Source of the DNA: a virus
IMG/VR virus record: IMGVR_UViG_3300014789_000001
Length of the DNA: 51,208 bases
Reading direction: 5' to 3' (one strand)
This document shows positions 4,326 to 51,208 of this stretch, one piece after another. The notes under the pieces were generated by a model. That model saw only the letters and a program-made list of their open reading frames with translations, did no database searches and had not been told where the DNA came from. The position numbers were made by a program, and so were the translations under genes. How positions within the stretch are numbered: position 1 is the stretch's first letter; each line of letters opens with the position of its first letter.

Positions 4326-4362
4326 AGGTTCGTCACCTCCTGACGGAAGGAAAGGAAGGCGG

Positions 4363-4494
4363 CTACTCGCCGCCCTCCTCGACCTTCTCGGTGTTCTTCT
4401 TGCCCTTGCCCGCGCTGCCGTTGTCCTTGGTCTCCGTCACCGGGGCCGCCTTCTTATTACTCTCGGGGCGGGGCTGCTTATACACTCTGGACAT
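4363..4494 (-). CDS. Small Lys-rich hypothetical protein (43 aa)
   Basis: This ORF is not on the ORF track. It starts at ATG 4494 with TAAGGAGGG upstream and fills the gap between neighbouring genes. Confidence 0.35.
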   Translation of the reverse strand: MSRVYKQPRPESNKKAAPVTETKDNGSAGKGKKNTEKVEEGGE

Positions 4495-4508
4495 AGCTGT
4501 CTCCCTCC

Positions 4509-4922
4509 TTACACCGGCTGCACGTTCTTATCGCCGAGGGCGATGGCGCAGGTGGCGGTGCAGCTCGGGGAGGTTCCGCCGGTGCACTCCACGGCGACAG
4601 TCGCCTTGATGAACTGCTTACAGCCCACGAGGTCGATGTCGATGTTGTGGAGCTCACTGCCTGCGGGGTCTGCCTCGATGGTGACCGCGCCGGTGTCGTC
4701 AGCGGTCTTGCCGGGTACGACGAGCTTGTCAGCGACAGGGGTGTAGCTGCCGCCCTCGGTGTCGCACTCGGTAAACGTCACCTTGACGGTGATGCCGGTG
4801 GGGGTGCCGGTGGCAGCGCCGAGGGAGACGCCCAGCACGGCAGAGAGGTAGCCCTCTCTGTCGATGGCGTCGCCGCTGGTGTAGGGCTGCACCTTCACGT
4901 TCTCAAGAAGTTCTCTTTTCAT
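4509..4922 (-). CDS. Hypothetical virion protein (possible head decoration)
   Basis: A 137-aa ORF immediately downstream of the major capsid gene. Confidence 0.4.
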   Translation of the reverse strand: MKRELLENVKVQPYTSGDAIDREGYLSAVLGVSLGAATGTPTGITVKVTFTECDTEGGSYTPVADKLVVPGKTADDTGAVTIEADPAGSELHNIDIDLVGCKQFIKATVAVECTGGTSPSCTATCAIALGDKNVQPV

Positions 4923-4958
4923 GCTGCTGTTCCTCCTTTGGTGTTATGCGCCTTCGCT

Positions 4959-6488
4959 TTACGCGATGGCGACGTTCTTGACGACGATGAAGCTCTCCGC
5001 GTGACGGGCCGCGATGTCCACATACATGAGGGCACGGGTGGCGGAGAGGTTCTCCTCGAAGGCGTTGTGCTGGACGCCGTTCTCATCCGTCCAAGAGCCG
5101 TCGAGGGTGGTGTAGGTCTCGAGGCCGAGCTGCTCGCCCACGAGGAGGTCTGCCCAGTTGCCGAAGATGATGGTGGTCTTGTTGCTGGCGGTCTCAATCT
5201 GGTTGGAGACCTTGTAGGGGAAGCCCAGAAGTTTGCCGCCGTTCATCTCCTCGCGGTAGATGTACTCGCCCGTGGTGGTCTTCATGTTCTTGAGGAAGCC
5301 CTCGACGAAGCTGTTGAACGTCCAGCCGAGGCCGAGGTCGTCAACGTTCTTCGCCAGCACCTTGGACACCAGCCACACGGGGAAGTCGGCGGTGATTTTG
5401 CCGTCCGCGCTGGCGAGGTCGGTGTTGTTCAGCGCGGTAGCGTCAACGTTCTCGACCTCCTTGTTCTTGGCGACGCCGAGAGGCTGGAATTCACCGCCGC
5501 TACCGAACATACCGCCGTAGTCGAGGCCCAGCTCCATGCGACGGGTGAGGTCGTTGGCGAAAAGGGCGTCGGCGGAGTAGTTGGTGCTCATGAGCAGCTC
5601 GCGGGTCTGGGGTACGATGGCCTCGAGGCGCTTCGCGCTCATCTTGATATTGCCGAAGGTGGGCTGGCTCTTGGCAATCTTACGAGCCTCGCCGCCCCAC
5701 GTCGCACGAGCGCCGGAGGTCATCTTGGGGATGTTGAGGTTGCCGTTCGCCATAGGTACCTTGCGAGCGCCGAGCTCGAAGATGACGGTCTTGGCGTACA
5801 GCATCTCGATAATCTCATCGAGGTAAATCTCCGGGATGAGGTAGCCGCCGGAGCTGGGGGAAGTGGCGGACATGGCCTTGAATTCGCGGGCCATAGCCTC
5901 ATCGCCGTAGTTCTTCTTGGCGTAGTAGGCTGCGGCCTCGGGGTCGTGCCGGCCAAAGACGTCCAGGCACTTCACAGCGCGGGCGAGCTGCACGTCGGCG
6001 GGGATTTTCTTCTTCTCGACGGTGACGACCTTGCGGGGCAGGTAGATGTCCGCGTACTTGCGCTGCGCCGGGGCTGCGGTGCGCTTCTTGGTCTGGCGGG
6101 CGGCGGCGGTCTTGGTGGCCTTGCCCTCCGCGACCTCCTCCTCGGACTTCTCCTCGGTCTCGGCGTCGTCAGCCTTGGCCTCCTCCTCGGCGGTGAGACC
6201 GTCAAGGATAGCGGCGGCCTCGGAGATGATTTCGTCGGGAGTAATCTCCTCGGGCACCTCCTCACCGGCCTCCTTGCGGGCCTTGCGCTTCTCGGTGGCG
6301 GCCTCGACGGCCTCCTCGATGACGCTCATGACGTCCATGCCCTCACCGGCGGTCTCCTCGGCGGGCGGGGTGTCTTCCTTCTCCTCGCCGAGGCACTCGG
6401 CGACGGCGGCCTTCACCATCTCCTTGAGGTCGTCTGCGCTCATCTTGAGGGACTTGCCGCTTGGAGTGTTTTTGTTGTTCATAGCCAT
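4959..6488 (-). CDS. Major capsid protein, HK97 fold, with long acidic N-terminal (delta/scaffold-like) region
   Basis: A 509-aa ORF starting at ATG 6488 after AAAGGAGG. The C-terminal ~330 aa look like an HK97 major capsid protein (GGYLIPE, TWGGE, PQTRELL), and the gene follows the prohead protease. Confidence 0.85.
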   Translation of the reverse strand: MAMNNKNTPSGKSLKMSADDLKEMVKAAVAECLGEEKEDTPPAEETAGEGMDVMSVIEEAVEAATEKRKARKEAGEEVPEEITPDEIISEAAAILDGLTAEEEAKADDAETEEKSEEEVAEGKATKTAAARQTKKRTAAPAQRKYADIYLPRKVVTVEKKKIPADVQLARAVKCLDVFGRHDPEAAAYYAKKNYGDEAMAREFKAMSATSPSSGGYLIPEIYLDEIIEMLYAKTVIFELGARKVPMANGNLNIPKMTSGARATWGGEARKIAKSQPTFGNIKMSAKRLEAIVPQTRELLMSTNYSADALFANDLTRRMELGLDYGGMFGSGGEFQPLGVAKNKEVENVDATALNNTDLASADGKITADFPVWLVSKVLAKNVDDLGLGWTFNSFVEGFLKNMKTTTGEYIYREEMNGGKLLGFPYKVSNQIETASNKTTIIFGNWADLLVGEQLGLETYTTLDGSWTDENGVQHNAFEENLSATRALMYVDIAARHAESFIVVKNVAIA

Positions 6489-18562: not shown

Positions 18563-19388
18563 TGTTGTCGCCTCCTATCATGCCGGGCGGGTGCTCCCGG
18601 AGGATGTCGTCGCCCCAGATAGGCTTGAGGCTGTCCTTCATGAAGACCGCCGTGCCCGCCTCGCGAGCCTTCTTAACGATGGCCTCTACCCATTCCCGCT
18701 TCGGCTGCTGCTTCCCGCTTCCGGGGCCCGTAATGGCCCCGATGATTACCCATCCGACGCGCTCAAAGGGGTTTTCGCCGCCGGTGGCCTCGGTGTCGAA
18801 GGGCTCCAAAAGGGGCTCGACGCTCACGAAGGTGTTTGCCTTGTCCCAGAAGAAGAAGGGCATATCCGGGCGGGTGATGGTGGTTCCGTACCAGAAGTTC
18901 GGCTCCGTGGGGAGCTTCCCGGCGCTGGCGAGGTCGCAATACCGCTGCGGGTTCTTGGTGAGGAACAGGTAGGTGTGCCTCGGGGCCCGGCGGCAAGCGT
19001 CAAAGACCTGCTCTATCCAGTCGCCCGGCACCCAGCGCCCGAACAGGTCTGCCATGCTGCCGACGAAGATGGTGGCGGGGGTAAGGCGCTTCTCCGGGTA
19101 TGTGAGCGTGTACTTGTGGAGCGTGGGAGCGAAGTTCTTGGGGTAAGGCGTCGAGCGCCGGTAGTTGCCCTGCCAGTCCTTGAGCTCCGTGGGCTTCTCG
19201 ACGACGTAGCAGTCCACGCCTTCGTTGACAAACGCCGTGATGCCGCTCTCATCTGGGAATTCGTCAATCTTGGGGCCGAACCGCGTTGCGATGCGCCGGG
19301 CGTAGCAGTAGGGGCAATCGTGCCGGCAGCCGGTGACGGGGTTCCATGTGTGGCTGCACCACTCAATTTTCGTCTTGTGGATGTTCAT
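18555..19388 (-). CDS. Phage Gp37/Gp68 family protein (DUF5131)
   Basis: A 277-aa ORF with the family N-terminal signature IEWCSHTWNPVTGCRHDCPYCYA. Confidence 0.75.
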   Translation of the reverse strand: MNIHKTKIEWCSHTWNPVTGCRHDCPYCYARRIATRFGPKIDEFPDESGITAFVNEGVDCYVVEKPTELKDWQGNYRRSTPYPKNFAPTLHKYTLTYPEKRLTPATIFVGSMADLFGRWVPGDWIEQVFDACRRAPRHTYLFLTKNPQRYCDLASAGKLPTEPNFWYGTTITRPDMPFFFWDKANTFVSVEPLLEPFDTEATGGENPFERVGWVIIGAITGPGSGKQQPKREWVEAIVKKAREAGTAVFMKDSLKPIWGDDILREHPPGMIGGDNSG

Positions 19389-19563
19389 GCTGGGCCTCCT
19401 GCGCTGTTTCCGGGAAGTGCGCCGCCTGCCCGACGTACTGCCGGGCAAAGGCGCTGACGTACTGGCGGCGCTCCTCCTCGGAGGTAAAGGCTGCGGGTAT
19501 CTTCTCGCGGGTGAAACTGTCCATGAACTGCTTTGCCCGCTTCTTCAAAATCCGCCTGTTCAT
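19363..19563 (-). CDS. Hypothetical protein
   Basis: A 66-aa ORF whose start overlaps the stop of the upstream gene (ATGA). Confidence 0.4.
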   Translation of the reverse strand: MNRRILKKRAKQFMDSFTREKIPAAFTSEEERRQYVSAFARQYVGQAAHFPETAQEAQHEHPQDEN

Positions 19564-20423
19564 AAAGCGTCCTTGACGATGTCCGCAAGGTGTTCGAGCT
19601 TCTCCGTCTCCGCGTCTTCGTTTTTGCCGAAGATGACGGCGAGCTGGTTGAGCATGATGGACACGTCGGCCCGCTCCTCCGCGATGCTCTCGACAATGTC
19701 GTCGTAGTCCCCTTGGTTGAAGTCTTCGTGACGGATGTACTTGAGGAGGGCTTTGGTGAGCTCGCTCATCTCCTCGATGGCGACGAGGATTTGGGCCCGC
19801 TCGCCGAACTTCTGCACCGCCGCCTTATAGAGCTCCTCCTCGCTCACCTCAATGGTGCTTTCGTCATTCCCGTCCAGAGATACCGAGATGTCGGATTTCA
19901 GATACAAAGCCGGGCGGACGCCGCGGCTGCCGTAGTACGCGCAGCCGTCGTTGAGCGTCCCGCCCGAGTTCACGTTGCGGACGAGAGAGGGGTAGCCTGC
20001 CCGCTCGGTGGAGTACGGCGTCGCCAGCCACCACCAGCCTTCGCCGCCGAGGGGCGGGAGGATGTCGCGGTGCTGCCGGTATTCCTCCTCGGTGAGCAGG
20101 CCCACCTTCGTCTTGACGTTCCCGTAGTCCTTGAGGCCGTCGTTGCTGGTGAGGTCGATGAACTGTTCCGCGACGGCCCCTTCTCCGAAGGCGTCCTCGA
20201 GCCTCTCGAGGAATTCCCCGTTGAGGTAGGCGAGCAGGGTGCTGACGCCGAGGTCGTTGCGGTTCTTCTCATCGAAGGCCCGACGCTCGACAATGCCGGT
20301 GGAAACGATGTGCGTGACGATGGGTAGCCCTTGGCTGCTGTTGGTGTGGCCCAGCACGAGCCACTGGATGCCCGCGCCGTAGAAGGTCTGCCCGCGTTTG
20401 AGGGTTTTGAGCTTCGCTTTCAT
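19560..20423 (-). CDS. Remote DGR target protein: variable ligand-binding domain (WW...GVRPA type) fused to C-terminal MazG-like NTP pyrophosphohydrolase-like domain
   Basis: A 287-aa ORF. Residues ~1-190 are homologous to the N-terminal domain of 39519..41225 and contain VR2. Residues ~195-287 carry EExxE/ExxD-type motifs (AIEEMSELTKAL, EERADVSIMLNQL) typical of small MazG-like domains. There is no internal stop or start at the junction. Confidence 0.8.
   Translation of the reverse strand: MKAKLKTLKRGQTFYGAGIQWLVLGHTNSSQGLPIVTHIVSTGIVERRAFDEKNRNDLGVSTLLAYLNGEFLERLEDAFGEGAVAEQFIDLTSNDGLKDYGNVKTKVGLLTEEEYRQHRDILPPLGGEGWWWLATPYSTERAGYPSLVRNVNSGGTLNDGCAYYGSRGVRPALYLKSDISVSLDGNDESTIEVSEEELYKAAVQKFGERAQILVAIEEMSELTKALLKYIRHEDFNQGDYDDIVESIAEERADVSIMLNQLAVIFGKNEDAETEKLEHLADIVKDAL
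19907..19985 (-). repeat. DGR variable repeat 2 (VR2)
   Basis: Hand alignment to TR 42461..42539 gives 77-79 bp with 10-12 mismatches, every one at a TR coding-strand adenine. Homology is lost beyond 19985. Confidence 0.8.
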
Positions 20424-20611
20424 TTCGTGTTACCTCCCGTTTTTGCTTTCTTGGTTTCCGGCTCGGCGACGCAGTTGCACCGCTCCGGCCCGTTGAGGCA
20501 GGGGTTCTTGCAGTTACCGTTCCGCTTGTAGCCGCAGTCGGCGCAGCAGAAATTCCCATGCCGCCTGTCGCAGTTGAAGATTTTACACATTCTCGGGGTG
20601 GTCTTGCTCAT
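20420..20611 (-). CDS. Small Cys-rich (probable metal-binding) protein
   Basis: A 63-aa ORF with 11 Cys (CKIFNCDRRHGNFCCADCGYKRNGNCKNPCLNGPERCNC). It has ATGA overlaps at both ends. Confidence 0.5.
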   Translation of the reverse strand: MSKTTPRMCKIFNCDRRHGNFCCADCGYKRNGNCKNPCLNGPERCNCVAEPETKKAKTGGNTK

Positions 20612-21222
20612 ACAGCCGCCTCCCCGTAGGGGTCTGGTAGGCTCCAATCCCACGTCGCCCCGGTTTTCTCGTAGGTCTTGCGGAAATGGTTCCGAAGACC
20701 GTCCCCCTCGAAGAAGAAGTAGTCCTCCGGGAGGGTTCTCCCGACGCCTTCCGCGCCGCGCTGCTCTGCCTGCCACCTCTCGAGGACGTCTCTGGCGAGC
20801 GCCTCAAGCTCCGGCGTGACCGGCGAGCTCTCGTAGTAGGCAAACTGCCACGGCGTAGTGAGCACCTCCTCGAGGGTCTCCCCATATGTACCTGCGTCCA
20901 GCCGGTTGAGGGCGCACCATGCGACAGCCGCCTTCTCTGCGTCGCTGGGGACACCTCTGGCCTCTGCCCAGATGGTCTTCGCCAGCATTTCGACGTCCCT
21001 CTCGGTGTAGAGGGGCTCCGGCGTGACCGCAGGGGACGCCACAGAGGACATAGGGGGGCTTGTGGTGATGGGGTGGTATGTTTCCCCTTCTGGGACGGCA
21101 GAGGGCAGCGCGGAGACGTCAAGGCCCGCAGAGGAGTACTCTGGCAGGGTGAGCAATCCTGCCGAAAACACAATCGCCACCAGCAGCATCGCCAGTGTGA
21201 CCGCGTCTTTCACCTTGCTCAT
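20608..21222 (-). CDS. SleB-like cell wall hydrolase (Hydrolase_2) with N-terminal membrane anchor
   Basis: A 204-aa ORF with an N-terminal hydrophobic helix, followed by LAKTIWAEARG....K.AVAWCALNR, as in SleB/CwlJ-type hydrolases. Confidence 0.65.
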   Translation of the reverse strand: MSKVKDAVTLAMLLVAIVFSAGLLTLPEYSSAGLDVSALPSAVPEGETYHPITTSPPMSSVASPAVTPEPLYTERDVEMLAKTIWAEARGVPSDAEKAAVAWCALNRLDAGTYGETLEEVLTTPWQFAYYESSPVTPELEALARDVLERWQAEQRGAEGVGRTLPEDYFFFEGDGLRNHFRKTYEKTGATWDWSLPDPYGEAAV

Positions 21223-22808: not shown

Positions 22809-25800
22809 TCATTCCATAGACACGCTGCTGCCGTTCTCTCCGCCCTGCACGATGATGTTCTGCGGGAACCGCGCCTTCATGGTGGGGTCGTGGCTGATTG
22901 CGAGAATTCTCATTCCGGGGTTCCGGGCTGCCATATTGGCGAGGGCGTCCGCGTATGCCTCGGTGCCGTCGGCGTCGAGGAAGGGTGGCTCGTCAATGAA
23001 CAGCATTCCGAGCTGTACGCCTGCCCGGCGGGCCTTGACGTCTGCAAGGCCGAGCGTGACGGCCAGCGCGATTTTGACCTTCTCGCCGCCGCTGTGGCTC
23101 TGGTAGGGTCTACTGCCGCCGGTGATGCTGTTTATCCACACCTCGAGGCTGTTCACGATTTTCTGGGTGCTCTTTTGCTCCTTTTCGGTGCGGATGTCAA
23201 CCGCCATGCGCCCGCCCGTCATGGCCGCGAGGATGTCGTTTGCCCGGTGCATAATCTCGGGGACGACGCCTCGGATTATCATGTACTGGATGCCGTCGAG
23301 CCCGAACGCCTGCACGAGCGTCTGATAGTCGTTGAGGGCTCTGGCGATGGCCGTGATGTCCTTGCGGTACTCCCCGGCCTGCTCCTCTGCCTCGGCGATG
23401 GCGTCGAGCTTTGTTCTGGTTCCGCCCTTGCTGGCCGAGAGGGCGTTGACGGTTTCCGTGAGCTCCCTGCGGCGGGCCGTGAGGGCCACCAGTGTGCTGC
23501 CGCCCGTTTCTGCCGGTATTTTGCTGCGGATGGCCGCCGCCTCGACGGTGGCCGTAGCCTGTTTCTGCTTGAGCTGCTCGATGTCTGCCTCGAGAGAGGA
23601 CACCTGCGGACGCAGGGCGTCCGCTGTGGCCGATGCCGCCCTACACTGGGGTAAAGTGTCGGCCAGCGCCTTCTTCGCGTTTAAGGACGCTCTGGCGGCC
23701 TCTGCGCGAGTGTGGGCTTCGCGGTACTGCGGGAGGGCTGCGTTTGCCTCCTCGATGGCCTTCGTGGTCTCGCGGATGCGGGCCTCCTCGGTCTCGATGG
23801 TCTTGGTGAGCTCCTCGACGAGCGTTTCCGCTGCTGCCAGCTTGGGAGCGAGGCCGGCGAGCTGCCGGTGCCCAGCTTCCTCCGCCGCAATCTCCTCGAG
23901 CTCCGCTGCCGGGTCTCCAATGGCCGTATATGCGGCCTTCGCCTGCTGGAAGGCGGCGGTGAGCCGCTCGTACTCGGCCTTTGCTGCGGCGCGGTATTCT
24001 GCGAGGCCCTCCCGGAGCGTTTCGAGGCTGCCCTTTGCCGCTACGGCATCCTTGAGGAAATTGCAGGTCGCGTTCTCCGGGGCCGGGCATCCGCTGTCTT
24101 CGAGCAGGGCCGCCCGTTTGGCGTAGTAGGCGATGCGCTCCTCCCGGCGGGAGATTTCCGCCTTGACCTCTGCGAGCTGGGCGTCTCTGGCCGCCTTTGC
24201 CTCGAGCACGGCTTTGTGGGCCTGCTGGAAGCTGCGGAGCCGGGCCTCTGCGTCCGCCCTCCGGGTGCCGAGGGCCTCGATGGCTCCCTGTGCCTGCCGG
24301 ATGTCCTCGCCCTTGGAGATGATGGCTTTCGCCTCCGCGATGGTCTGCCGGGCGCTTTGGATGGCGCGGTCTGCGGTGATGAGGGTTTTCTCCTTGTCGG
24401 CGATGCTCTGGATGCAGGCCCTCATCCTCTCCTCATGCGGTGCCGCCGCCTCGATGACGGCGCGGGCATCCTCGACGGCTGCTGCCGCCTCCTCTGCCGC
24501 CGGGGCGGCTGCGGCGAGCGTCTCTGCGTTGGAGAGCTGCGCCTTCACTGCGGAGAGCCGGTTGCCCTTGTCGGTAATGTCGGCCCCTGTGGCCGCCGCT
24601 TCCCGCTCCTTGGCCTCTGCCTGTTTGGTGAGCTCCTCTCGCATGGCCTCGCTGCGCTGCGCGGCGGCGATGGCCGTCTCGAGGGTCTCCGCCTCTTTCT
24701 GCGCGGCGGTGATTTTGTCGTCGTACTGCCCGAGCTCGGCTTCGAGCTCTGCCTTCGCGTCGATTTGCTCCTCGAGGACGGAGAGGCGCTCGCGGGTGGC
24801 GGCAATCTTCCGGCGCTGTTCGCTGGCCCCGTCCTTGGCAAGGTCTTCGAGCCGGCCATAAATGTCCAGCCCGAGGAGGGCCGAGAGGACTTCCATACGC
24901 CTGTCGCTGCTGGCCTCGAGGAACAGGCCGTAAGCGTCCTGCCGGATGAGCGCCACGGAGCAGAAGGTGTTGCAGTCCATTCCGAGGACACGCTCGATGC
25001 GGGCCTGCGTCAGCTTCATGGTGGTGTCGCTTTCGTCCAGCCATTCGCCGGTCTCGGGGTTGCGCCGGTGGATGGCGAGTGTGCCGCGCCCGCTCTTGGT
25101 TCTTGTGCGGATGACGCGATAGGTCTCTGCTCCCATGCCGAAGGTGAAGGTGATGGCCCCGCTCTTGGTGCCGTCCCGCACCCAGCCTCCGATGTCTTCC
25201 TTCCGGGTCTGCTCATAGAGGCAGTCAGCGATGGCGTCCATAAAGAGGCTGCTCTTGCCGACGCCGTTCTGCCCGTTCACCATAGCCATGTGGACGTCCG
25301 AAAAGTCGAATTCCGCCTCGGTGTAGCTGCGGTAGTTCTTGACCTCGATGGAGATGGGGGCAAAGTTGCCGGTGCGCTTGTCGGCGTCCCTGCCGTCGTC
25401 CGCCTTCTTGATGAGCGGGGCGGCGAGCTCCATGAGCCGGGCCGCCTCCTCCGGCGCGACCTCGAGCTTCTTGAGGTATCGTCCGAGGGCCTCTGTGGGG
25501 CCTTCGTGCTCTGTGACCTCGCTTTCTCCGGCGACGTCTTCGACGTCCTCCGGGAGCACCTCTGCGACGTAGAACGCGCCCGCCGCCAGTAGCTTCTTTT
25601 GCAGGTCGGCCTTGTTGAGAGCCTTTTCCTGCTCTGCGGTGCAGTTGTAGCGGACGCGGACGATTGCGTCCTTGAGCGGCTCCGGCGCTTCCGGGAGCTC
25701 TCCGCTGGCCGTGAAGGCGGTGACGTCCTCCGGCCCCACGCGGTAGGTGTAGTGCTGGCGTTCCGGCGTCCGGACGAACTTTGTCTCAACTGCGGTGCCG

Positions 25801-26618
25801 GGTTCTCCGACGGGGGAGGTGAAAATCTGGTGGAGCCAGAAGCCGTGTTCGACGCCTTCGTCGTTGAAGTTGAGCTGATTTGGGCTGCCGCAGTAATAGG
25901 CCGGGGTATTGCACGGGAGTTTCTGCGGGCGATGGATATGCCCGAAACAGGCGAGGTCTACGCCGGTGCTGTCGATGGTCGAAGGTAGGATGACAACATC
26001 CTGCCCCGCGAGGAAGGTGCTGCCGTTGTCGGCTTCGCTGCCGGCGACGGTGTAATGGGCCACAAGGATGCTCGGGATGCTCTTGTCGAGCTCTGTGGAC
26101 AGTCCGAGGAGGACGTCGTTGATGAGCGCGGTAGCGTTGCGGTTCTCGGTCTCCTTATCCGCTCCGGGGCAGAACAGCCGCAGGCGGCCTTTGTCGAAGC
26201 CAGGGAGGGCCAAAATCTGAACCGGCCCGGCGCTGGTGGTGAGCTTCTCGATGCCCGGAGCGGTGTAGATGTGGAGGTTCTTTTCGTCCTTGGTGATTTC
26301 CCGCACAGTCTCGAAGGCGCGGGGGTTGTCGTGGTTCTCGGTGCCGAACAAAAGGACGACGTGCTCGCTGCTGCGGCACAAAGGCCGGATGAATTCGGTG
26401 ATGGCGTCGTTCACGTCGTCGAGGGCGGTGTCGGCCCAGACGCGTGAGCGGTTGAACAGGTCTCCGGCGATGATGGTGACGTTCGGCGTCTCCGTCGCGG
26501 CCCGCTGCGCGATGTACTTCATGCAGGCGATGGTATCCTGCCTGCGGGCGTTTTTACCGTCCCGAACCGGCCCCGTAAGGTCTCCGAGGTGGATGTCGGC
26601 GGTGTGCAAAATCTTCAT
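22809..26618 (-). CDS. Fused SbcD-SbcC (Mre11-Rad50-like) nuclease-ATPase
   Basis: A 1269-aa ORF. The N-terminus carries phosphoesterase motifs (ADIHLGD, GDLFN, GTENHD, GHIHRP). These are followed by a Walker A (GQNGVGKSS), a ~600-aa coiled coil, the signature SGGEKV and a Walker B (LFIDEP). Confidence 0.9.
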   Translation of the reverse strand: MKILHTADIHLGDLTGPVRDGKNARRQDTIACMKYIAQRAATETPNVTIIAGDLFNRSRVWADTALDDVNDAITEFIRPLCRSSEHVVLLFGTENHDNPRAFETVREITKDEKNLHIYTAPGIEKLTTSAGPVQILALPGFDKGRLRLFCPGADKETENRNATALINDVLLGLSTELDKSIPSILVAHYTVAGSEADNGSTFLAGQDVVILPSTIDSTGVDLACFGHIHRPQKLPCNTPAYYCGSPNQLNFNDEGVEHGFWLHQIFTSPVGEPGTAVETKFVRTPERQHYTYRVGPEDVTAFTASGELPEAPEPLKDAIVRVRYNCTAEQEKALNKADLQKKLLAAGAFYVAEVLPEDVEDVAGESEVTEHEGPTEALGRYLKKLEVAPEEAARLMELAAPLIKKADDGRDADKRTGNFAPISIEVKNYRSYTEAEFDFSDVHMAMVNGQNGVGKSSLFMDAIADCLYEQTRKEDIGGWVRDGTKSGAITFTFGMGAETYRVIRTRTKSGRGTLAIHRRNPETGEWLDESDTTMKLTQARIERVLGMDCNTFCSVALIRQDAYGLFLEASSDRRMEVLSALLGLDIYGRLEDLAKDGASEQRRKIAATRERLSVLEEQIDAKAELEAELGQYDDKITAAQKEAETLETAIAAAQRSEAMREELTKQAEAKEREAAATGADITDKGNRLSAVKAQLSNAETLAAAAPAAEEAAAAVEDARAVIEAAAPHEERMRACIQSIADKEKTLITADRAIQSARQTIAEAKAIISKGEDIRQAQGAIEALGTRRADAEARLRSFQQAHKAVLEAKAARDAQLAEVKAEISRREERIAYYAKRAALLEDSGCPAPENATCNFLKDAVAAKGSLETLREGLAEYRAAAKAEYERLTAAFQQAKAAYTAIGDPAAELEEIAAEEAGHRQLAGLAPKLAAAETLVEELTKTIETEEARIRETTKAIEEANAALPQYREAHTRAEAARASLNAKKALADTLPQCRAASATADALRPQVSSLEADIEQLKQKQATATVEAAAIRSKIPAETGGSTLVALTARRRELTETVNALSASKGGTRTKLDAIAEAEEQAGEYRKDITAIARALNDYQTLVQAFGLDGIQYMIIRGVVPEIMHRANDILAAMTGGRMAVDIRTEKEQKSTQKIVNSLEVWINSITGGSRPYQSHSGGEKVKIALAVTLGLADVKARRAGVQLGMLFIDEPPFLDADGTEAYADALANMAARNPGMRILAISHDPTMKARFPQNIIVQGGENGSSVSME

Positions 26619-33497: not shown

Positions 33498-34614
33498 ACA
33501 ACAGGTATGGTCGCTTTCCGACGGGAAAAGGCTGCGGGAGGTGAAGGCTCCGAGCGAGAAGCAGATTGAAGACTTGCTCGCCGCGAACATCGAAATTCTC
33601 GACGCCGGGTGGCTGGTGATAGGCCGGCAGGTGAAGACGGAGGGTGGCGGCTTCATTGACATCCTCTGCATCGACCAGCAGGGGGCTTTGGTGGTCGTCG
33701 AGCTAAAGCGCGAGCTGACGCCGAGAGAGGTAACGGCCCAGGCGCTTGACTACGCTTCCTGCGTCTCCGTCTTCACGGCGGCCCAGATAGCCGAGACCTA
33801 CATGGCATACAGCCGGAAGCTGGGGCGGCCCGAGACGCTCGACAAGGCGTATGAGCGGAAATTCGGGATGAAGCTGGATGCCGACGCCTTTCGGGGCGAC
33901 GCTGGCCGGAATGAGGTAAAAATCGTCGTCGTAGCGACGAGAATGGACGGCAGCACCGAGCGCATCATCGAGTATCTGTCCGAGGCCTTCAAAGTAAATA
34001 TCAACATCCTGTTCTTCTGTGTCCTCGAGTACAACGGCTCCTTGCTGCTGTCTCGGGCGTGGTTGCGTGACCGTGAGGAGCTTGCTGCTGCTCCTGCTGT
34101 TGGCCGCCGTGAATGGAATGGGGAATACTTCTTCAATTTCGGAGACAGCGAGAGCCGCAGTTGGGAGGAGGCCCGGAAGTACGGCTTTATCTGCGGTGGC
34201 GGCGGGAAATGGTATCACCAAGTCATTTCCTCTATCGAGCCGGGCTCGCGGGTCTGGGTTCGCATTCCGGGCTCTGGCTATGTCGGCGTCTGCACCGTCC
34301 GCGAGAAGGCTGTCCCGGCCCCGGAGGCGGTTCTCTCCGTCGATGGGAAGGACGTTCCCTTCCTCGAGCTCCCGCTCAAGGGTCACTACCATCGGGACAG
34401 AACCGACTATGACGAGCAGGAATTTATCGTGAAGGTGGATTGGGAAGTCTCCGTCCCGAAGGACGAGGCCGTACACGAGTTCGGCTTCTTTGGCAATCAG
34501 AACATCGCCTGCCGCCCGACGGCTCCGAGCTGGGAGTTTACCCTTGACCGCCTAAAATCTGTCTGGGGGCTCCGGCGGGATGGAGGTGGTGCCGATGCCG
34601 GTTTACAAGGATGA
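33487..34614 (+). CDS. NucS/DUF91-like PD-(D/E)xK nuclease-domain protein with uncharacterised C-terminal domain
   Basis: The N-terminal core GGFIDILCIDQQGALVVVELKRE fits a D...ExK restriction-endonuclease fold. The C-terminal ~170 aa (WNGEYFFNFGD..RSWEEARKYGF..GGG) has a beta-rich PUA/EVE-like look. The start could instead be 33481. Confidence 0.55.
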   Translation: MGLEQQVWSLSDGKRLREVKAPSEKQIEDLLAANIEILDAGWLVIGRQVKTEGGGFIDILCIDQQGALVVVELKRELTPREVTAQALDYASCVSVFTAAQIAETYMAYSRKLGRPETLDKAYERKFGMKLDADAFRGDAGRNEVKIVVVATRMDGSTERIIEYLSEAFKVNINILFFCVLEYNGSLLLSRAWLRDREELAAAPAVGRREWNGEYFFNFGDSESRSWEEARKYGFICGGGGKWYHQVISSIEPGSRVWVRIPGSGYVGVCTVREKAVPAPEAVLSVDGKDVPFLELPLKGHYHRDRTDYDEQEFIVKVDWEVSVPKDEAVHEFGFFGNQNIACRPTAPSWEFTLDRLKSVWGLRRDGGGADAGLQG

Positions 34615-35647
34615 CGAGCGAGGAACATGGTACGCCTCTTTCTACTACACCGACTGGCAGGGCCGCCGGAAGCTCAAGAAGAAGCGCGGGTTTGAGCGTA
34701 AGAAGGACGCGCAGGAATTCGAGCGCGAATTCCTTGCAAAGCAAGAGCGTTCCTGCGATATGACCTTCGCCTCCCTCTGGGAGCTCTATTGTGATGATAT
34801 GGCCTCCCGGCTGCGGGAAAATACCCTACAAAGCAAAAAATACCTCGTAGAGCGGCATATACTACCGTTCTACGAGGCTCTAAAGGTAAATGAGATAACT
34901 CCCGCCCATGTGCGGAAATGGCAATCCGAGCTGCTGTCAAAGGGGTACGCGCAGACCTATGTGAAGTCAATAAATAATCAGCTTGTCGCGGTGCTGAATT
35001 ATGCTGTCTGCTACTACGGCCTCCCTTCAAATCCCTGCCACGTCGCCGGGAGTGTGGGCCGGAAGAACGCCGACGCGATGAAGTTCTGGACGAAGGAACA
35101 GTTTGAGGCGTTCCTCGCTTGCGTGGAGCGCCCTTCTGCCCGCGCCGGGTTCTCCTTGCTGTTCTGGACGGGCATCCGCATCGGGGAGCTGCTCGCGCTT
35201 ACGCTCAATGACTTCGACTTCGAGAAGAAGACGCTCTCGGTCTCAAAGTCCTTCCAGTCTATAAAGGGCCGGGAGGTTATCACCGAACCGAAAACGCAAA
35301 AGAGCAAGCGCGTTATTCCTCTGCCGGACAAGCTCTGCGCCGTAGTGCAGGAATACACAACGCGCCTCTATGACTACTCCCCGGACGAAAGGCTTTTCCC
35401 GTTCACAAAGTCCTTCTTTCACAAGGAGATGGAAAAAGCCTGCGCGGCCTCCGGTGTCGAGAAAATCCGTCTGCACGACCTCCGGCATTCTCACGCCTCG
35501 CTGCTTATAGAGATGGGAGCCCCGATACTCCTTGTCTCCGAACGCCTCGGGCATGAGGACGTTGAGACTACCCTTCGTACCTACGGGCACCTCTATCCGA
35601 ACAAGCATGAGGACACTGTAAAGAAGCTGGATGACCTCATGAAATAG
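34595..35647 (+). CDS. int: Tyrosine integrase
   Basis: The C-terminal catalytic motifs HDLRHSHAS and LGHEDVETTLRTYGHLY are present, with a SAM-like N-terminal domain. ATG 34595 follows GGAGGTGG. Confidence 0.9.
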   Translation: MPVYKDDERGTWYASFYYTDWQGRRKLKKKRGFERKKDAQEFEREFLAKQERSCDMTFASLWELYCDDMASRLRENTLQSKKYLVERHILPFYEALKVNEITPAHVRKWQSELLSKGYAQTYVKSINNQLVAVLNYAVCYYGLPSNPCHVAGSVGRKNADAMKFWTKEQFEAFLACVERPSARAGFSLLFWTGIRIGELLALTLNDFDFEKKTLSVSKSFQSIKGREVITEPKTQKSKRVIPLPDKLCAVVQEYTTRLYDYSPDERLFPFTKSFFHKEMEKACAASGVEKIRLHDLRHSHASLLIEMGAPILLVSERLGHEDVETTLRTYGHLYPNKHEDTVKKLDDLMK

Positions 35648-36017: not shown

Positions 36018-37031
36018 TTAGACCGCGTTGAGGTACTTGAGGGCGACCCAAGAAACGATTTCCTGTAAGAGGGCCTCCTCCTCGCCTTTGTGGGTGGCGA
36101 GCTGCTTGACGGTGTACTTGCGGTTCGGGCCGGACACGCCAGAGGGAACCGCCTTCCCTCTGGTGGTTGCGAGGCCGCCGTAGACGGCTCCGTCGTCGAT
36201 GGTGACCTTGCTGCCGACCTTGATGGCCGGGGCCGCCGTGGCCCCGGTGCCGGTCTTGGTGACGTAATCGAGGGAAATCCAGCCGACGCCGGATTTGAGC
36301 TTGCCCCATTTGGTCGCGCCGGTGCCGTCCGCCTCCGCGACGATGGTATAGATGCCGGGGGCGATGAAGCCCTTGCGTTCGTAGTTGGTGCCGGGGCCGC
36401 TGCGGATGTTGAGGTCTGTGACCGTCACCTTGACGGTGTAGTTGGTAGCGGTCTGCTCGCTGTCGGTGGTGGGTGTGCTCGGGGTGGAGCTCCCACCGCC
36501 GAGGCGTCTGGTGACCTCCTCTGCGATGGCCCCGTGCCGCTCGTAGAGGTAATCTCCGGGGCACGACTTGTTTGCAAACCAGCGGTGAACCGTCATCACC
36601 ATCTCCCCGGATTTCGGGGTGTAAGCGAGGGTCTTTGCCTTGTCTCCGAACCACAGGAGCTTCTTGGCTCCGTTACGGCGGCAGATGTCGGTAACGAGGT
36701 CGAGAAGGGCTGCGTATGCTTTGTCCGTGACGGCGTAGGGTGCCTTGTTGTCGCTGGCCGTCTCAATGGTGACCGCACGGTGGTCGTTGGAACCGCTGGA
36801 GGTGCACCAAGAGCGGTCTCCCTCATCGACGCACAGGCCGATGCTGCCGTCGTAGCCGACGACATAATTGCAAGACGCCTCCTTGCTGGTGGGCTGAAAG
36901 ACCTCGCATCCGCGCTTTGCCGTTACCTGCCCGACGAAACAATGGATGCTGATGGTGTCGATTTTGTGATTGCGGGGGCTGTTCTTGTTCGGGCTGATTA
37001 GGGTGTAGTTTACGAGAGGGCTGTTGCTCAT
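36018..37031 (-). CDS. Endolysin: N-acetylmuramoyl-L-alanine amidase (Amidase_2/PGRP-like) with SH3b-type wall-binding repeats
   Basis: A 337-aa ORF starting at ATG 37031 after AAAGGAGA. The N-terminal part (IDTISIHC...NYVVGYDG...DHRAVTIE...H..F..K.CPG) is followed by SH3-like repeats (LNIRSGPGTNY...). Confidence 0.85.
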   Translation of the reverse strand: MSNSPLVNYTLISPNKNSPRNHKIDTISIHCFVGQVTAKRGCEVFQPTSKEASCNYVVGYDGSIGLCVDEGDRSWCTSSGSNDHRAVTIETASDNKAPYAVTDKAYAALLDLVTDICRRNGAKKLLWFGDKAKTLAYTPKSGEMVMTVHRWFANKSCPGDYLYERHGAIAEEVTRRLGGGSSTPSTPTTDSEQTATNYTVKVTVTDLNIRSGPGTNYERKGFIAPGIYTIVAEADGTGATKWGKLKSGVGWISLDYVTKTGTGATAAPAIKVGSKVTIDDGAVYGGLATTRGKAVPSGVSGPNRKYTVKQLATHKGEEEALLQEIVSWVALKYLNAV

Positions 37032-37050
37032 GGTAGGGTCTCCTTTCGGG

Positions 37051-39518: not shown

Positions 39519-41225
39519 TTACACATAAGAGCCGCTTACCGGCCTGCTGCTGATGGTGTCGTAGCCGGGGCTCTTGGCGATTTGCACTTTGACGCCGACG
39601 CCCCATTTCTCTGCGGTCTTGGTGGCGTTCGAGAAGATGTGTTTGAGGCCGATGGTGGCGAGCTCCCATGTGGGGCTGTCGTCGAAGGCGTTGTTGCACA
39701 CAGAGACGGTGACGTCTTCTGCCGCTGCGTAGTACTGCAGGGACACAAGAATTTTCTCGGCTGCGGCGTCGGTCTCGATGGGGCCGACGATGTACTCGAT
39801 GCCGGTGACGCTGCGGGTGAAAGTGGTCGTCCGGGTGGCACTGTTGCCGAGGGTGTCCGTGACCTTGACCTGCATGGTGTGCTGTCCATTCGACAGGGCC
39901 GCGAACTGCGCCTCTGTGAGGGCGAAAGTGTAGGTCTGGTTTCTTACGGCATCCTCGATGGTGCGGATTTCGTTCCCGTCGAGGCTCTCAACGACGGTGA
40001 GCGCGTCCTCGGTGTCTTGGTCGTTCACGGTGTAGGCCATCGAGGGCGGGCTCGTGACGGTGCCGAGGTCGGTGTCGCTGCCGCTGATGGTGGGGTCTAC
40101 GTTGTGGACGACGGTTTTGACCGTGCTGCTGGTGTAGCCGCTGTACGCTCCGTTGACGTCCTTCGCCCGGACGCGCCACTGAACCGTGTTCGCGCTGGTG
40201 CCGACGCCGGTGTCGTCGTATCTGGTGGCGCTGCCGGTGTAGATGTTCGTCCACGCGCCGCTGTTGATGCTCCGCTCGAGCTCATAGGTGATTGCGCCGC
40301 CCTCTGGGTCTACGCTGGCCGCCCACGAAATTTCTGCGGCCTTGCCGCTGCGTACTTCGTCCGGGACGGTGATGCTGGGCGGGGTCGTCGGGGCTTGGTT
40401 CCATACAATCGTGTACGCTCCATCGCTGTCCGGGCTGTCAGATACCAAGATGGAAGATGACAGATTCAAAGCCGGGCGGACGCCGCGGCGGCCGATGTAC
40501 GCGCTGTAGCTGGCGAGCGTCCCGTCCGAGTTCACGTAGCGGACGAGGTACGAGTTCGACGCGAGCGGGGAGCGCAAGTAGTAGTACCAGTACTGGGATG
40601 CGCTCAACGAGCCAGACGTGTACTCGCTGTTCGATACTGCCTGCGCGGTGGGCCGGCATTGGCGGCTGGCGTTGTCGCTGAACATGGCAAGGGTGGAGCC
40701 CTCCGAGACGCCGTTCTCTGCGCCGAGGCCGACTTCCGCCTTGGACAGCAGGAAGACCTTGTCTGTGACGGTCTCGGAGCCGCCGCCGTCTACGCTGGCC
40801 TTCGCTACGGTGAGGGTGGTGTTGAGGATGGCGGCGAGCATCTGCGCCGAGAAGCCGGTGAGGAAGCCCGCCTCATCGTCGTACTCATTGTAGTTGCTCC
40901 ATACATTGGCGTTGGTGGGCGCTGCGTCTGCGCCGTGCTGGGCTTGATACCACGGCGAGCCCGCCTTGTTTAGCCATTGGCGGAGGTTGGAGAGGGAATA
41001 CCTGTTGTTGCCATATCTCCGGCGGTTGCTGTCGCTGTTCCCGCTCTCAATCGCATCGAAGCAGGCGAGCTTGAGGATGTTCGCAGCGACGAGGGTGACG
41101 GAGTTCGCCGGGTACCCGGCGTGGTTCTTGTCGCCTATCTCCCAGATGATAGGGACGCCGTAGTAGGTCGTGCCGGTGTCTTTGACCTTTGCCTTTACGG
41201 GCAGGGCACTAATTGATTGGGACAT
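39519..41225 (-). CDS. DGR target protein 1: tail-fibre-like receptor-binding protein with internal variable domain followed by FN3/Ig-like domains
   Basis: A 568-aa ORF starting at ATG 41225 after GAAAGGAG. It contains VR1 at about residues 217-253 (LRSPLASNSYLVRYVNSDGTLASYSAYIGRRGVRPAL). An FN3-like segment follows (ISWAASVDPEGGAITYELERSINSGAWTNIY). Confidence 0.85.
   Translation of the reverse strand: MSQSISALPVKAKVKDTGTTYYGVPIIWEIGDKNHAGYPANSVTLVAANILKLACFDAIESGNSDSNRRRYGNNRYSLSNLRQWLNKAGSPWYQAQHGADAAPTNANVWSNYNEYDDEAGFLTGFSAQMLAAILNTTLTVAKASVDGGGSETVTDKVFLLSKAEVGLGAENGVSEGSTLAMFSDNASRQCRPTAQAVSNSEYTSGSLSASQYWYYYLRSPLASNSYLVRYVNSDGTLASYSAYIGRRGVRPALNLSSSILVSDSPDSDGAYTIVWNQAPTTPPSITVPDEVRSGKAAEISWAASVDPEGGAITYELERSINSGAWTNIYTGSATRYDDTGVGTSANTVQWRVRAKDVNGAYSGYTSSTVKTVVHNVDPTISGSDTDLGTVTSPPSMAYTVNDQDTEDALTVVESLDGNEIRTIEDAVRNQTYTFALTEAQFAALSNGQHTMQVKVTDTLGNSATRTTTFTRSVTGIEYIVGPIETDAAAEKILVSLQYYAAAEDVTVSVCNNAFDDSPTWELATIGLKHIFSNATKTAEKWGVGVKVQIAKSPGYDTISSRPVSGSYV
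40469..40576 (-). repeat. DGR variable repeat 1 (VR1)
   Basis: Base-by-base hand alignment to TR 42461..42568 gives 108 bp with 16 mismatches, all at TR coding-strand adenines. Confidence 0.9.
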
Positions 41226-42279
41226 CTGCTGTTTCGCTCCTTTCAAAAATCTCATTGTAGAGTTGGTCGTATTTCTGTATGAGCGCGTGGCAATCGCCGT
41301 GGGAGGCGTGTGACCGCCAGCTCTGGTAGCTCTCGGTGACTTTCTCCTTGGTGATGGCTCCGCTCTCGTACATGACCTTGTACTTCCGCAGTTTCCGCTT
41401 CATCCGCTCGCGGCTGGCCCGGCGCAGCTTGCGGACGACTTTGCCGGTGTCCGTGAGGTAGCTGTGGAAGCCGAGAAAATCCAGTCCATTTCGGAGGGGA
41501 AATATCTGCGTCTTGTCGTTGAGCTCGAGCCCTCGCTCCGCGAGGTGCTCCGATATGGCCTTCCATGCGGCCCGGAGGGTGTCTTTGCTTTCGTGGATGA
41601 TGTAGAAGTCGTCCATGTATCTCCCGTAGTAGCGGAAGCGGAAGCCCTCTTTCATGAGGTGGTCGAGCTTGTTGAGGTATAAGAGCGCGAATACTTGGCT
41701 GCTCTGGTTGCCTATGGGTATGCCGACGTTGCCCGGTGTGCTGTCGATGATGAGGTCGGTGAGCGCGAGGCTCCTTTCGTCGTCGAGCAGCTCCCGGACG
41801 TCCCGCTTGAGGATGTCGTGCCGGATACTGGCGAAGTAGTGGTGGACGTCCGCTTTCAGTACCCATCCGTCTGCGCTGCCGTGCCTGCGGTAATATTCCC
41901 GCATGAAGTCGCGCAGCCGGTTGAGGCCGAAGTGGGTTCCCTTGCCTATCTGCGAGCCGTAGTTGTCGAGAATGAAAGGCCGGGTGAGGACGTCGTAGAG
42001 AATGGTGTCGCAAAAGGCGTGTTGGACGATTTTGTCCTTGAAGGAGTTGGTCTGAATGAGCCTTTTCTTCGGCTCGAAGACATAAAACTCCCGGTAACCG
42101 CCGGGGCGGTATGTGCCGGTGCTCAACTCCTCTTGCAGGACGGCGATGGCCTCGAGGGCGTTCATCTCTACCTTGGCGACAGTGTTCTTCCACCTCTTGC
42201 CGCGCCGGGATGCCCGGTAGGCGTTGTAGAGCGTTTCAAATTCGTAGACGGTATCAAAATTGACCTTCGTTTTCTGCAT
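41209..42279 (-). CDS. DGR-type reverse transcriptase
   Basis: A 356-aa ORF starting at ATG 42279 after GAGGAG. It has the RT motifs through YMDDF plus the DGR-typical IGNQSSQ. The gene is adjacent to the TR and overlaps the target gene start by 17 nt. Confidence 0.9.
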   Translation of the reverse strand: MQKTKVNFDTVYEFETLYNAYRASRRGKRWKNTVAKVEMNALEAIAVLQEELSTGTYRPGGYREFYVFEPKKRLIQTNSFKDKIVQHAFCDTILYDVLTRPFILDNYGSQIGKGTHFGLNRLRDFMREYYRRHGSADGWVLKADVHHYFASIRHDILKRDVRELLDDERSLALTDLIIDSTPGNVGIPIGNQSSQVFALLYLNKLDHLMKEGFRFRYYGRYMDDFYIIHESKDTLRAAWKAISEHLAERGLELNDKTQIFPLRNGLDFLGFHSYLTDTGKVVRKLRRASRERMKRKLRKYKVMYESGAITKEKVTESYQSWRSHASHGDCHALIQKYDQLYNEIFERSETADVPIN

Positions 42280-42308
42280 CTGCTTGGGCTCCTCTAAACA
42301 CCGCAAAA

Positions 42309-42460: not shown

Positions 42461-42568
42461 AAGCCGGGCGGACGCCGTTGTTGCCGTTGTACGCGTTGTT
42501 GTTGTTGAGCGTCCCGTCCGAGTTCACGTTGCGGACGTTGTTCGAGTTCGACGCGTTCGGGGAGCGCA
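42461..42568 (-). repeat. DGR template repeat (TR)
   Basis: The coding-sense strand holds 13 AAC codons and 29 adenines by hand count. It is non-coding in context and is the donor for VR1 and VR2. Confidence 0.9.
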
Positions 42569-42620: not shown

Positions 42621-43022
42621 TCAGCCTTTCGGGCTGAACCGCGCTGCATCCTTCTTCCGCCACGAAGCTGTGAGGTTCTTGACGTCGAGTATCTTCTTCG
42701 TCCAGTCCTCGCAGCGGCGGATGTCGATGTAGCCCCTTTCGAGGGCTATGTCGAGTAGGTTGAGGAGGAGCTTACATTTCGTAAGAGCTCTCTTTTGAAG
42801 GTCGAGGCGTTCTGCTGTCTCTGCGGCGCTGCGAGGGAATATCTCGTTCGCCTCTATGAGGCATTCCAGAACGTCGAGGGCCGCTGTCTCCATCCGCTGC
42901 GAAAGTGTGAAGCGGACGCTTTTCGGAAACACCTTGTTGCTGGCCCACATGGTATGGTTCACAAGGTCTTTGGCCTTGCTTATGGCGGTGAGTTCGCCGG
43001 GCTTGCCGTTCGTAGCAGACAC
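42621..43022 (-). CDS. avd: Accessory variability determinant (Avd-like four-helix-bundle protein)
   Basis: A 133-aa ORF with the motif FPKSVRFTLSQRMETAALDVLECLIEANE and a basic C-terminus, immediately upstream of the TR. The start is uncertain because GTG 43022 abuts the GGAG. Confidence 0.7.
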   Translation of the reverse strand: MSATNGKPGELTAISKAKDLVNHTMWASNKVFPKSVRFTLSQRMETAALDVLECLIEANEIFPRSAAETAERLDLQKRALTKCKLLLNLLDIALERGYIDIRRCEDWTKKILDVKNLTASWRKKDAARFSPKG

Positions 43023-51168: not shown

Positions 51169-51208
51169 GTTTTCACCTCCTTAAATGCCGGAATAGCCGC
51201 CCCCGAAG
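51114..51208. repeat. Terminal direct repeat, copy 2 (identical to 1..95)
   Basis: Exact 95-bp match to the window start. This is most simply a circular-assembly overlap. Confidence 0.9.

Follow-up and report, generated by a model that had tools for sequence, protein, structure and literature searches.

A remote target of a prophage diversity-generating retroelement is joined to a MazG-like domain in a single conserved open reading frame

Diversity-generating retroelements (DGRs) of phages have been seen almost wholly as tropism switches for tail-fibre tips. The subject of this study is a DGR target gene, target 2, in a virus genome of 51,208 nucleotides (IMG/VR record IMGVR_UViG_3300014789_000001; this whole stretch is called the window), whose product was found to join a hypervariable domain to a MazG-like domain. 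Two-target systems of related design have been described. In the gut phages nd4 and nd12, one template repeat (TR) serves a tentaclin and a small DUF6273 protein named tgt2, which was modelled as a C-type-lectin-like (C-lec-like) protein with a hypervariable beta-hairpin and for which an Mtd-like receptor-binding role was proposed (Baykov et al. 2023, PMC10743442). A like arrangement was reported in Toutatisvirus, with a distance of 17.5 kb between the TR and the second variable repeat (VR2), which is part of a core gene (Egorov et al., bioRxiv 10.1101/2024.10.15.618418). DUF6273 targets of two sizes, large and small, were reported in Lelie and CP11 (PMC11792537). The large DGR surveys are explicitly blind to remote targets (PMC8144416). 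A remote second target, which a sequence-only reading of the window had presented as a novelty, was thus already in the literature.

The N-terminal domain of target 2 was found to belong to the same PHROG as the published tgt2 proteins and to be 40% identical to nd4_tgt2 over window aa 2-233, and the remote second variable repeat is therefore a known arrangement. Against the PHROG 9958 profile, nd4_tgt2, nd12_tgt2 and Toutatis gp24 were matched at 7e-81, 4e-46 and 2e-86, respectively. Shared with these proteins are the PHROG 9958 DUF6273 domain, putatively C-lec-like, with the variable repeat at its C-terminal end and the two-target layout, in which the tentaclin is located beside the reverse transcriptase (RT) and the small target many kb away among early genes. 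The published tgt2 proteins are described as a single globular domain and none was reported with MazG, whereas the MazG-like domain of the window protein was found to have its motifs intact; in nd4_tgt2, only a remnant of the first MazG helices is left at the end, and it lacks the motifs.

Target 2, its variable repeat and its MazG-like domain

A single conserved open reading frame (ORF) was found to join the variable domain to the MazG-like domain. Its features are as follows.

19560..20423, minus strand: target 2 (tgt2-MazG fusion), 287 aa plus stop, from the ORF listing; also a single 288-aa ORF in the independent NCBI metagenome-assembled genome (MAG) GCA_963610915.1
19866..20423, minus strand: DUF6273 variable domain, putatively C-type-lectin-like, aa 1-186, PHROG 9958 (Pfam, PHROG, AlphaFold2 and Foldseek)
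19907..19985, minus strand: VR2, codons 147-172 of target 2 (12 of 12 TR mismatches at adenines, entropy columns and haplotypes)
19848..19865, minus strand: inter-domain linker, aa 187-192, disordered, the sole segment of the AlphaFold2 model with a predicted local distance difference test score (pLDDT) below 50
19563..19847, minus strand: MazG-like all-alpha domain, aa 193-287, a predicted NTP pyrophosphohydrolase (PHROG 2245, profile, Foldseek and motifs)

The DGR by which VR2 is served was found to contain the following components.

42621..43022, minus strand: Avd accessory protein, 133 aa (NCBIfam NF033474 DivGenRetAVD, 1.4e-11, under the curated cutoff)
42461..42568, minus strand: TR, 108 nt, whose 3' 79 nt are the template of VR2 (repeat finding and alignment)
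41209..42306, minus strand: DGR RT (Pfam RVT_1, 4e-17; IGNQSSQ motif in the translation)
39519..41255, minus strand: target 1, tentaclin-type (Pfam DUF6273, 3e-35, and Ig-like Big_13; PHROG 10993 over the full length, 1e-211)
40469..40576, minus strand: variable repeat of target 1 (VR1), with mismatches to the TR at adenines only across all 108 nt

The IGNQSSQ motif is one that we take to be a mark of DGR RTs. The cassette was found in the order Avd-TR-RT-target 1, with the DGR core (Avd, TR and RT) at 41.2-43.0 kb. Target 1 was assigned as a tentaclin in the sense of PMC10743442 because DUF6273, the Ig-like Big_13 domain and a full-length match to PHROG 10993 were present together.

In an ungapped alignment in coding sense, VR2 (19907..19985) was found to differ from the TR (42461..42539) at 12 of 79 nt, and all 12 mismatches were located on TR adenines, 23 of which are contained in that stretch (hypergeometric P = 2.6e-8). 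Ten of the mismatches fall in the 3' 77 nt, the two excluded ones being those of codon 147, which is CTC in VR2 and AAC in the TR; the counts of the sequence-only reading were thereby reproduced. Upstream of 19985 the homology ends, with many non-adenine mismatches beyond, and of the TR only the 3' 79 nt are copied into target 2. The segments 19907-20014, 40469-40576 and 42461-42568 were independently placed in one family by a repeat finder. VR1, VR2 and the TR were found to contain a common GC-rich 3' end, GGCGTCCGCCCGGCTT, past which the flanks differ from that of the TR. The distance between VR2 and the RT ORF is 21.2-22.4 kb, in agreement with the figure of about 22 kb given earlier, and VR2 is surrounded by genes for replication and recombination. 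One DGR thus writes adenine-mutagenised copies of its TR into two genes, target 1 and target 2. In target 2, VR2 recodes 12-13 codons of a beta-hairpin region, whose strands are at aa 147-151 and 157-161 and with which the DUF6273 domain, putatively C-lec-like, ends on its C-terminal side.

The N-terminal part of target 2 was matched by Pfam DUF6273 at aa 46-177 (1.4e-10) and by PHROG 9958, the published tgt2 family, at aa 1-208 (2e-52). The AlphaFold2 model, built on a 50-sequence alignment (pLDDT 92), was found to contain a mixed alpha/beta domain at aa 1-186. In Foldseek searches, the top PDB match was to the T. ramosa IgA peptidase (9qa6, E 2e-6), in its N-terminal DUF6273 domain, and the BFVD matches comprised viral DUF6273 proteins and phage NTP pyrophosphatases (NTP-PPases). 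No transmembrane or signal-like segment was found in target 2, the maximum Kyte-Doolittle 19-residue mean being 0.91, as had been claimed from the sequence. No Ig-like domain, by which tentaclins are recognised, was found in target 2 by Pfam, and the beta-prism and beta-sandwich attachment domains of the Mtd type were absent from the AlphaFold2 model, which contains the DUF6273 and helical domains only.

The N-terminus had also been described as a paralog of the N-terminal domain of target 1. Between the two targets, BLASTP aligned only the stretch of the VR (67% over 36 aa) and, weakly, the N-terminal region. A common domain family, DUF6273, was therefore retained and close paralogy was rejected, the similarity being essentially that of the VR alone. 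As a separate observation, a 140-aa ORF on another contig (L008, 13096-13518) was found to contain a DUF6273-like start (KEIEIGKTFWAAGIEWMVLD ... GVRPT) resembling a collapsed mini-version of the domain, followed by the presence of an unrelated Cys-containing C-terminus.

The C-terminal domain was matched by PHROG 2245, annotated 'nucleoside triphosphate pyrophosphohydrolase', at aa 192-279 (3.5e-19), and four helices were found in the AlphaFold2 model at aa 195-206, 208-235, 240-265 and 269-282. The motifs E217-E218-x-x-E221 and E249-E250-x-x-D253 were intact, and the two segments quoted for them in the sequence-only reading, AIEEMSELTKAL and EERADVSIMLNQL, were both present. All six residues (E217, E218, E221, E249, E250 and D253) were invariant among the 37 close variants of exactly 287 aa; across 14 divergent C-terminal domains the acidic motif residues were likewise invariant except for E249, which was kept in at least 90%. 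DR2231, iMazG, S. solfataricus MazG (1vmg) and DCTPP1 were recovered from the PDB by Foldseek at a probability of 0.9-0.99. A profile of the 14 divergent domains was found to match iMazG 2q73 (E 0.0076) with EExxE and ExxD aligned, and a direct Pfam MazG match was obtained in 3 of the 14 (best 3.6e-5). For the window protein itself, no MazG match was found in direct Pfam or NCBIfam scans and a single-sequence PDB search was non-significant; the assignment therefore required PHROGs, the domain profile and structure. The label of this exact protein in IMG is 'NTP pyrophosphatase (non-canonical NTP hydrolase)'. On motifs and model, the domain is a MazG-like four-helix domain with intact metal-binding acidic motifs and a predicted hydrolase.

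Diversification of VR2 in natural populations

A search of 5.8 billion proteins yielded 1679 homologs of target 2, and the variation statistics were derived from the best 120 together with the window protein (121 sequences). These 120 homologs were full length and 94-97% identical, with lengths of 286-332 aa, nearly all of them 286-291 aa; the 90%-identity cluster of the window protein contained 1533 members. High-entropy columns were found only at aa 147, 150, 152, 154, 156, 158-161, 163, 164, 166 and 167, which are exactly the codons that contain adenine in the TR. The VR2 peptide haplotypes were distinct in 121 of 121 sequences, with a mean of 10.6 differences per 23 aa within VR2 against 3.8 per 264 aa elsewhere. 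Outside the VR fewer than 2% of the residues differ, and all variants examined were found to keep an intact ORF.

In the 37 variants of exactly 287 aa, the positions templated by AAC contained only residues from among the 15 amino acids that can be reached by adenine substitution, and the VR2 residues were mostly Tyr, Ser, Asn, Asp and Gly. Residue usage was found to differ among positions that share the AAC template codon (approximate chi-square p ~5e-4). At the DNA level, VR2 of six IMG/VR contigs differed from the window TR at 13-14 sites, of which 0-2 were non-adenines. The polymorphism expected at TR-adenine sites was thus found both in the 121 protein variants and in the six contigs. A TR identical to that of the window was present in the unrelated contigs L015 and L016.

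The pairing of TR and VR2 was established for the window alone, the other contigs being fragmentary, and the diverged lineages were judged by the clustering of variable sites. In contigs L036-L039, no TR copy was found less than 10 kb away from the fusion gene. Nucleotide differences were concentrated in VR2 in three further lineages too. Of 30 variable nucleotide columns in a 66-67%-identical clade of four contigs, 28 were located within VR2. For the pair formed by a prophage of a Pseudoflavonifractor isolate and a Flavonifractor MAG, at 47% identity to the window, the count within VR2 was 10 of 19 differences. Diversification of VR2 is ongoing in nature, including in orthologs from other lineages.

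Variation was observed in the length of VR2 as well. The protein was 288 aa in 54 of the 121 sequences, 287 aa in 37 and otherwise 286-291 aa, with the extra or missing codons located in the AAC run (window 19925-19955, codons 158-161), which points to TR length differences or to insertions and deletions in retrohoming. A TR copy in contig L014 (about 1854-1932, recognised by its TR-specific 3' flank) was found to contain AAC TAC GGC AAC where the window contains AAC AAC AAC AAC, and adenine positions therefore differ between strains in the TRs as well.

Two proteins from public assemblies (P0123 and P0125) were found to be reciprocal chimeras of target 2 and the tentaclin with the junction exactly inside the VR, one with the target-2 N-terminus and the tentaclin C-terminus and the other with the tentaclin N-terminus and MazG. 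These may be either repeat misassemblies or real recombinants between VR1 and VR2; a recombinant between these direct repeats would lose or duplicate about 20.5 kb.

Conservation of the fusion and its genomic setting

Besides the set at 94-97% identity, full-length fusion orthologs were found at 79%, 66-67%, 46-49% and 36-41% identity, and the proposed search for homologs of the fusion was thus answered with conserved fusions down to 36%. The fusion was present in IMG/VR contigs, in the NCBI MAG GCA_963610915.1 and in the cultured isolate Pseudoflavonifractor sp. Marseille-P3106 (L036, 47% identical). That the fusion is an artefact of frameshift or misassembly, or that the VR2 match arose by chance, was considered with regard to the VR-joined chimeras P0123 and P0125, which do occur in metagenome assemblies. 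Against this, an identical architecture is present in more than 1600 public sequences, in IMG/VR contigs, in an NCBI MAG and in the isolate, and the adenine-only pattern has the very small P given above. An artefact is so improbable on this recurrence across independent assemblies and an isolate, together with the adenine-only pattern, that it was ruled out. A merger of two genes by sequencing error, which the sequence-only reading had named as capable of refuting it, is contradicted by the single ORF in the MAG, the IMG/VR contigs and the isolate, and none of the other refuting outcomes that it had named was encountered.

The two modules were also found in other arrangements. The MazG module occurs alone (~110 aa) and behind DUF1599. 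In the protein P0147 the order is reversed, a MazG-like domain being followed by the presence of DUF6273 with a degenerate VR-like end (GVVPRL), and the fusion arose at least twice, in opposite domain orders. In P0243, a Cys-rich module of the kind that precedes target 2 in the window is fused straight to the MazG domain, and no DUF6273 separates the two. When the longer DUF6273 relatives were scanned for partner domains, Ig-like domains or nothing were found, plus one further DUF3310 fusion. In nd12 (L114), a MazG-like pyrophosphatase gene at 4333-4752 (phrog_3301, 5.6e-40) was found to overlap the start of tgt2 at 4746-5639, and the N-terminus of nd12_tgt2 is DUF3310, a domain that PHROGs tie to nucleotide kinases; PMC10743442 is silent on both of these links to nucleotide metabolism. 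Two further MazG-like proteins were observed apart from these. P0224 contains three MazG-like domains in tandem, and P0226 contains a domain of the same subfamily after a signal-peptide-like N-terminus (MKKALSFILVLTLVFGSTSVIFA), which is odd for an NTP-dependent enzyme; P0226 may be a chimera.

This range of arrangements bears on a second alternative, in which the variation of VR2 would be a tolerated by-product of an ancestry of the VR and the IMH-like (initiation of mutagenic homing) site shared with target 1, the variation would itself have no adaptive value, and the fusion would be due to two neighbouring genes having lost the stop codon that kept them apart. It is consistent with the near restriction of the similarity between the two targets to the VR, with the relatives that contain MazG alone, the Cys-rich module with MazG or DUF6273 alone, and with the persistence of target genes in DGR-less phages (Egorov et al., 10.1101/2024.10.15.618418). 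However, the arrangement and the hypervariability of the VR are kept in lineages whose identity ranges between 47% and 97%, Toutatisvirus has tgt2 among its core genes, and the variants combine intact ORFs with the low divergence outside the VR. The different residue usage at positions with the same AAC template and the repeated invention of the fusion in opposite orders likewise argue against a by-product, which is regarded as improbable.

The window was found to comprise the whole genome of a temperate, myovirus-like prophage of ~51 kb (circular unit ~51.1 kb). An exact direct repeat of 95 bp is present at its ends (1-95 = 51114-51208), and the window is therefore a complete, circularly assembled genome. 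Near-identical copies of the genome were found in MAGs of human-gut Clostridia and Oscillospiraceae, and one near-identical copy is located inside a 140-kb contig, from which it follows that this is a prophage. The host is a human-gut Oscillospiraceae. No annotated close relative was found when 25 kb of the window were compared by megablast with 50,697 phage records. The DGR cassette is flanked by tail-fibre and baseplate genes on one side and by the endolysin and integrase genes on the other. The latter two and the genes nearest to target 2 are as follows.

34580-35647, plus strand: integrase, the only plus-strand gene among those discussed here
36018-37184, minus strand: endolysin
19363..19563, minus strand: 66-aa ORF whose ATG overlaps the target 2 stop (ATGA), followed by the DUF5131 and RecU genes
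20420..20611, minus strand: Cys-rich 63-aa ORF with CxxC-type motifs, whose TGA stop overlaps the target 2 ATG (ATGA)
20608-21222, minus strand: SleB-type cell-wall hydrolase (Hydrolase_2) whose N-terminus is hydrophobic, two genes upstream of target 2
22809-26618, minus strand: 1269-aa single ORF with a Mre11/SbcD-like metallophosphoesterase and an SbcC/Rad50-like SMC ATPase, kept in contigs L032 and L036

The surroundings of target 2 thus contain the SbcCD-like fusion, DUF6291, a G39P-type loader, the Hydrolase_2 protein, DUF5131, RecU and SSB, and as read from the sequence, target 2 is translationally coupled to its neighbours in an early replication and recombination operon. The same gene order was found in L032 and in the 47%-identical prophage L036. 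An early-gene location of tgt2 was also found in nd4, where nd4_tgt2 adjoins an exonuclease gene with an SSB gene ~5 kb downstream, and in Toutatis, where gp24 is located between a methyltransferase and a replication initiator. No MazG-like genes were found beside Toutatis gp24, its neighbours being PHROGs of unknown function. As for the Hydrolase_2 gene, it was observed at the same place in L036, and Toutatis contains a 3D-domain peptidase-like gene ~3 kb upstream of tgt2.

Proposed role of target 2 and comparison with known systems

The reading preferred here, held with somewhat better than even confidence, is that target 2 would be a cytoplasmic oligomeric nucleotide pyrophosphohydrolase whose lectin-like module binds a variable ligand. 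The protein would be made early and would act in the cytoplasm as a MazG-type dimer or tetramer. Its lectin-like module may bind the variable ligand and thereby localise, regulate or simply accompany the enzyme, and the DGR would let the phage population keep up with variation in that ligand. The early and cytoplasmic placement is proposed because target 2 contains no transmembrane or signal segment, overlaps both neighbouring genes by ATGA, is located among replication genes and has links to nucleotide metabolism in its relatives (P0147 and nd12).

Several observations weigh against this reading. Of the cluster representatives at 50% identity, the 150 with the best scores were mostly stand-alone DUF6273 proteins of ~200 aa and only ~11 contained both domains, so that the binding module works without the enzyme. 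The MazG motifs were degenerate or truncated in P0134, P0248 and nd4_tgt2, and catalysis may therefore be dispensable. The position-specific preferences within VR2 are just modestly significant (chi-square p ~5e-4, with low expected counts). In BPP-1, the VR ends at its 3' side in a GC-rich IMH site, after which comes a hairpin or cruciform; 3' of VR2, a search for inverted repeats of at least 7 nt found none, and a weak one was found only 3' of VR1. Phage proteins also reach the virion, or are released on lysis, without a signal peptide. Finally, the published proposal is that tgt2 is a receptor-binding protein (PMC10743442; 10.1101/2024.10.15.618418).

Target 2 could accordingly be an extracellular binder, virion-associated or released on lysis in the manner of Mtd, in which the MazG-like bundle would serve oligomerisation or attachment and so give avidity. 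This is a real possibility, considered less likely than not to be correct by a clear measure. The putatively C-lec-like fold with a hairpin rich in Tyr, Ser, Asp, Asn and Gly resembles that of receptor-binding DGR targets (PMC10743442), and the same TR serves target 1, which is clearly of the structural type. An extracellular binder would further be consistent with the many family members that lack MazG and with the decayed catalytic motifs in some fusions. MazG-type domains, which belong to the all-alpha NTP-PPase superfamily, are obligate oligomers, as such a role for the bundle would need. However, the gene is located in a coupled early replication operon and not in a tail module (window, L032, L036, nd4 and Toutatis), and target 2 contains no tail-attachment domain, Ig-like domain or secretion signal. 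The catalytic acidic residues are invariant in most lineages, which a mere scaffold would not need, and the ties to nucleotide-metabolism modules are independent of one another.

A bolder form of the cytoplasmic reading is that of an intracellular, antibody-like repertoire, in which the DGR would continually re-specify a cytoplasmic binder, and host factors that vary rapidly, such as defence proteins or their nucleotide products, would recruit or activate the tied pyrophosphohydrolase. This form is speculative and thought improbable. If it were true, target 2 would be the first example in a virus of a counter-defence module driven by hypermutation, and the whole published tgt2 family would have been mis-assigned as receptor-binding proteins.

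Like BPP-1 Mtd, whose VR is contained in a C-type-lectin-type fold, target 2 contains its VR in a domain for which a fold of this type is proposed, and both are subject to adenine-directed retrohoming from a TR by Avd and RT. Mtd is a trimer at the tail-fibre tip with beta-prism and beta-sandwich domains and its gene is located beside the DGR, whereas target 2 contains neither domain, is remote from the DGR in an early operon and is fused to a predicted enzyme. The MazG-like domain resembles iMazG (2q73, 2q5z), DR2231, DCTPP1 and the phage MazGs, likewise domains of ~95 aa with four helices and EExxE...ExxD, the phage ones being typically encoded in early regions; its sequence similarity to the solved structures is weak (profile E 0.008), and none of those is fused to a hypervariable binding domain. 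The phage MazG-like protein Atd1 was reported to deplete (p)ppGpp and was implicated in counter-defence (bioRxiv 10.1101/2022.06.09.495361). In the papers found to mention DUF6273, or DGR together with MazG, no link is drawn between DUF6273 or DGR targets and MazG.

Intracellular DGR targets linked to enzymes or NTPases, which the sequence-only reading had taken to be unusual, are known in bacteria. They comprise STAND/NLR-like putative antigen sensors with DGR-diversified C-lec domains (Dore et al. 2024, PMC10907252) and cyanobacterial targets linked to kinases or proteases (PMC7517822). Target 2 would share with these the logic of a hypervariable C-lec sensor fused to a cytoplasmic NTP-dependent or enzymatic domain. 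They are encoded by multicellular bacteria as cellular genes and have large signalling architectures, whereas target 2 is an early phage protein of small size with a predicted hydrolase domain of the MazG type, and no phage counterpart of the bacterial NTPase- or kinase-fused intracellular DGR C-lec proteins was found in the literature. Abundant human-gut prophages commonly contain the small remote DUF6273 target, which has so far been assumed to be a receptor-binding protein. The elements that are new in relation to the described systems are the MazG fusion, which is widespread and motif-intact, the fusion in reverse order, the MazG-like gene adjacent to tgt2 in nd12 and the conserved position in an early operon. 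As grounds for an intracellular role, these elements appear to point to the cytoplasm, and if such a role is true, the targeted hypermutation of viruses would reach from adsorption to intracellular virus-host conflict.

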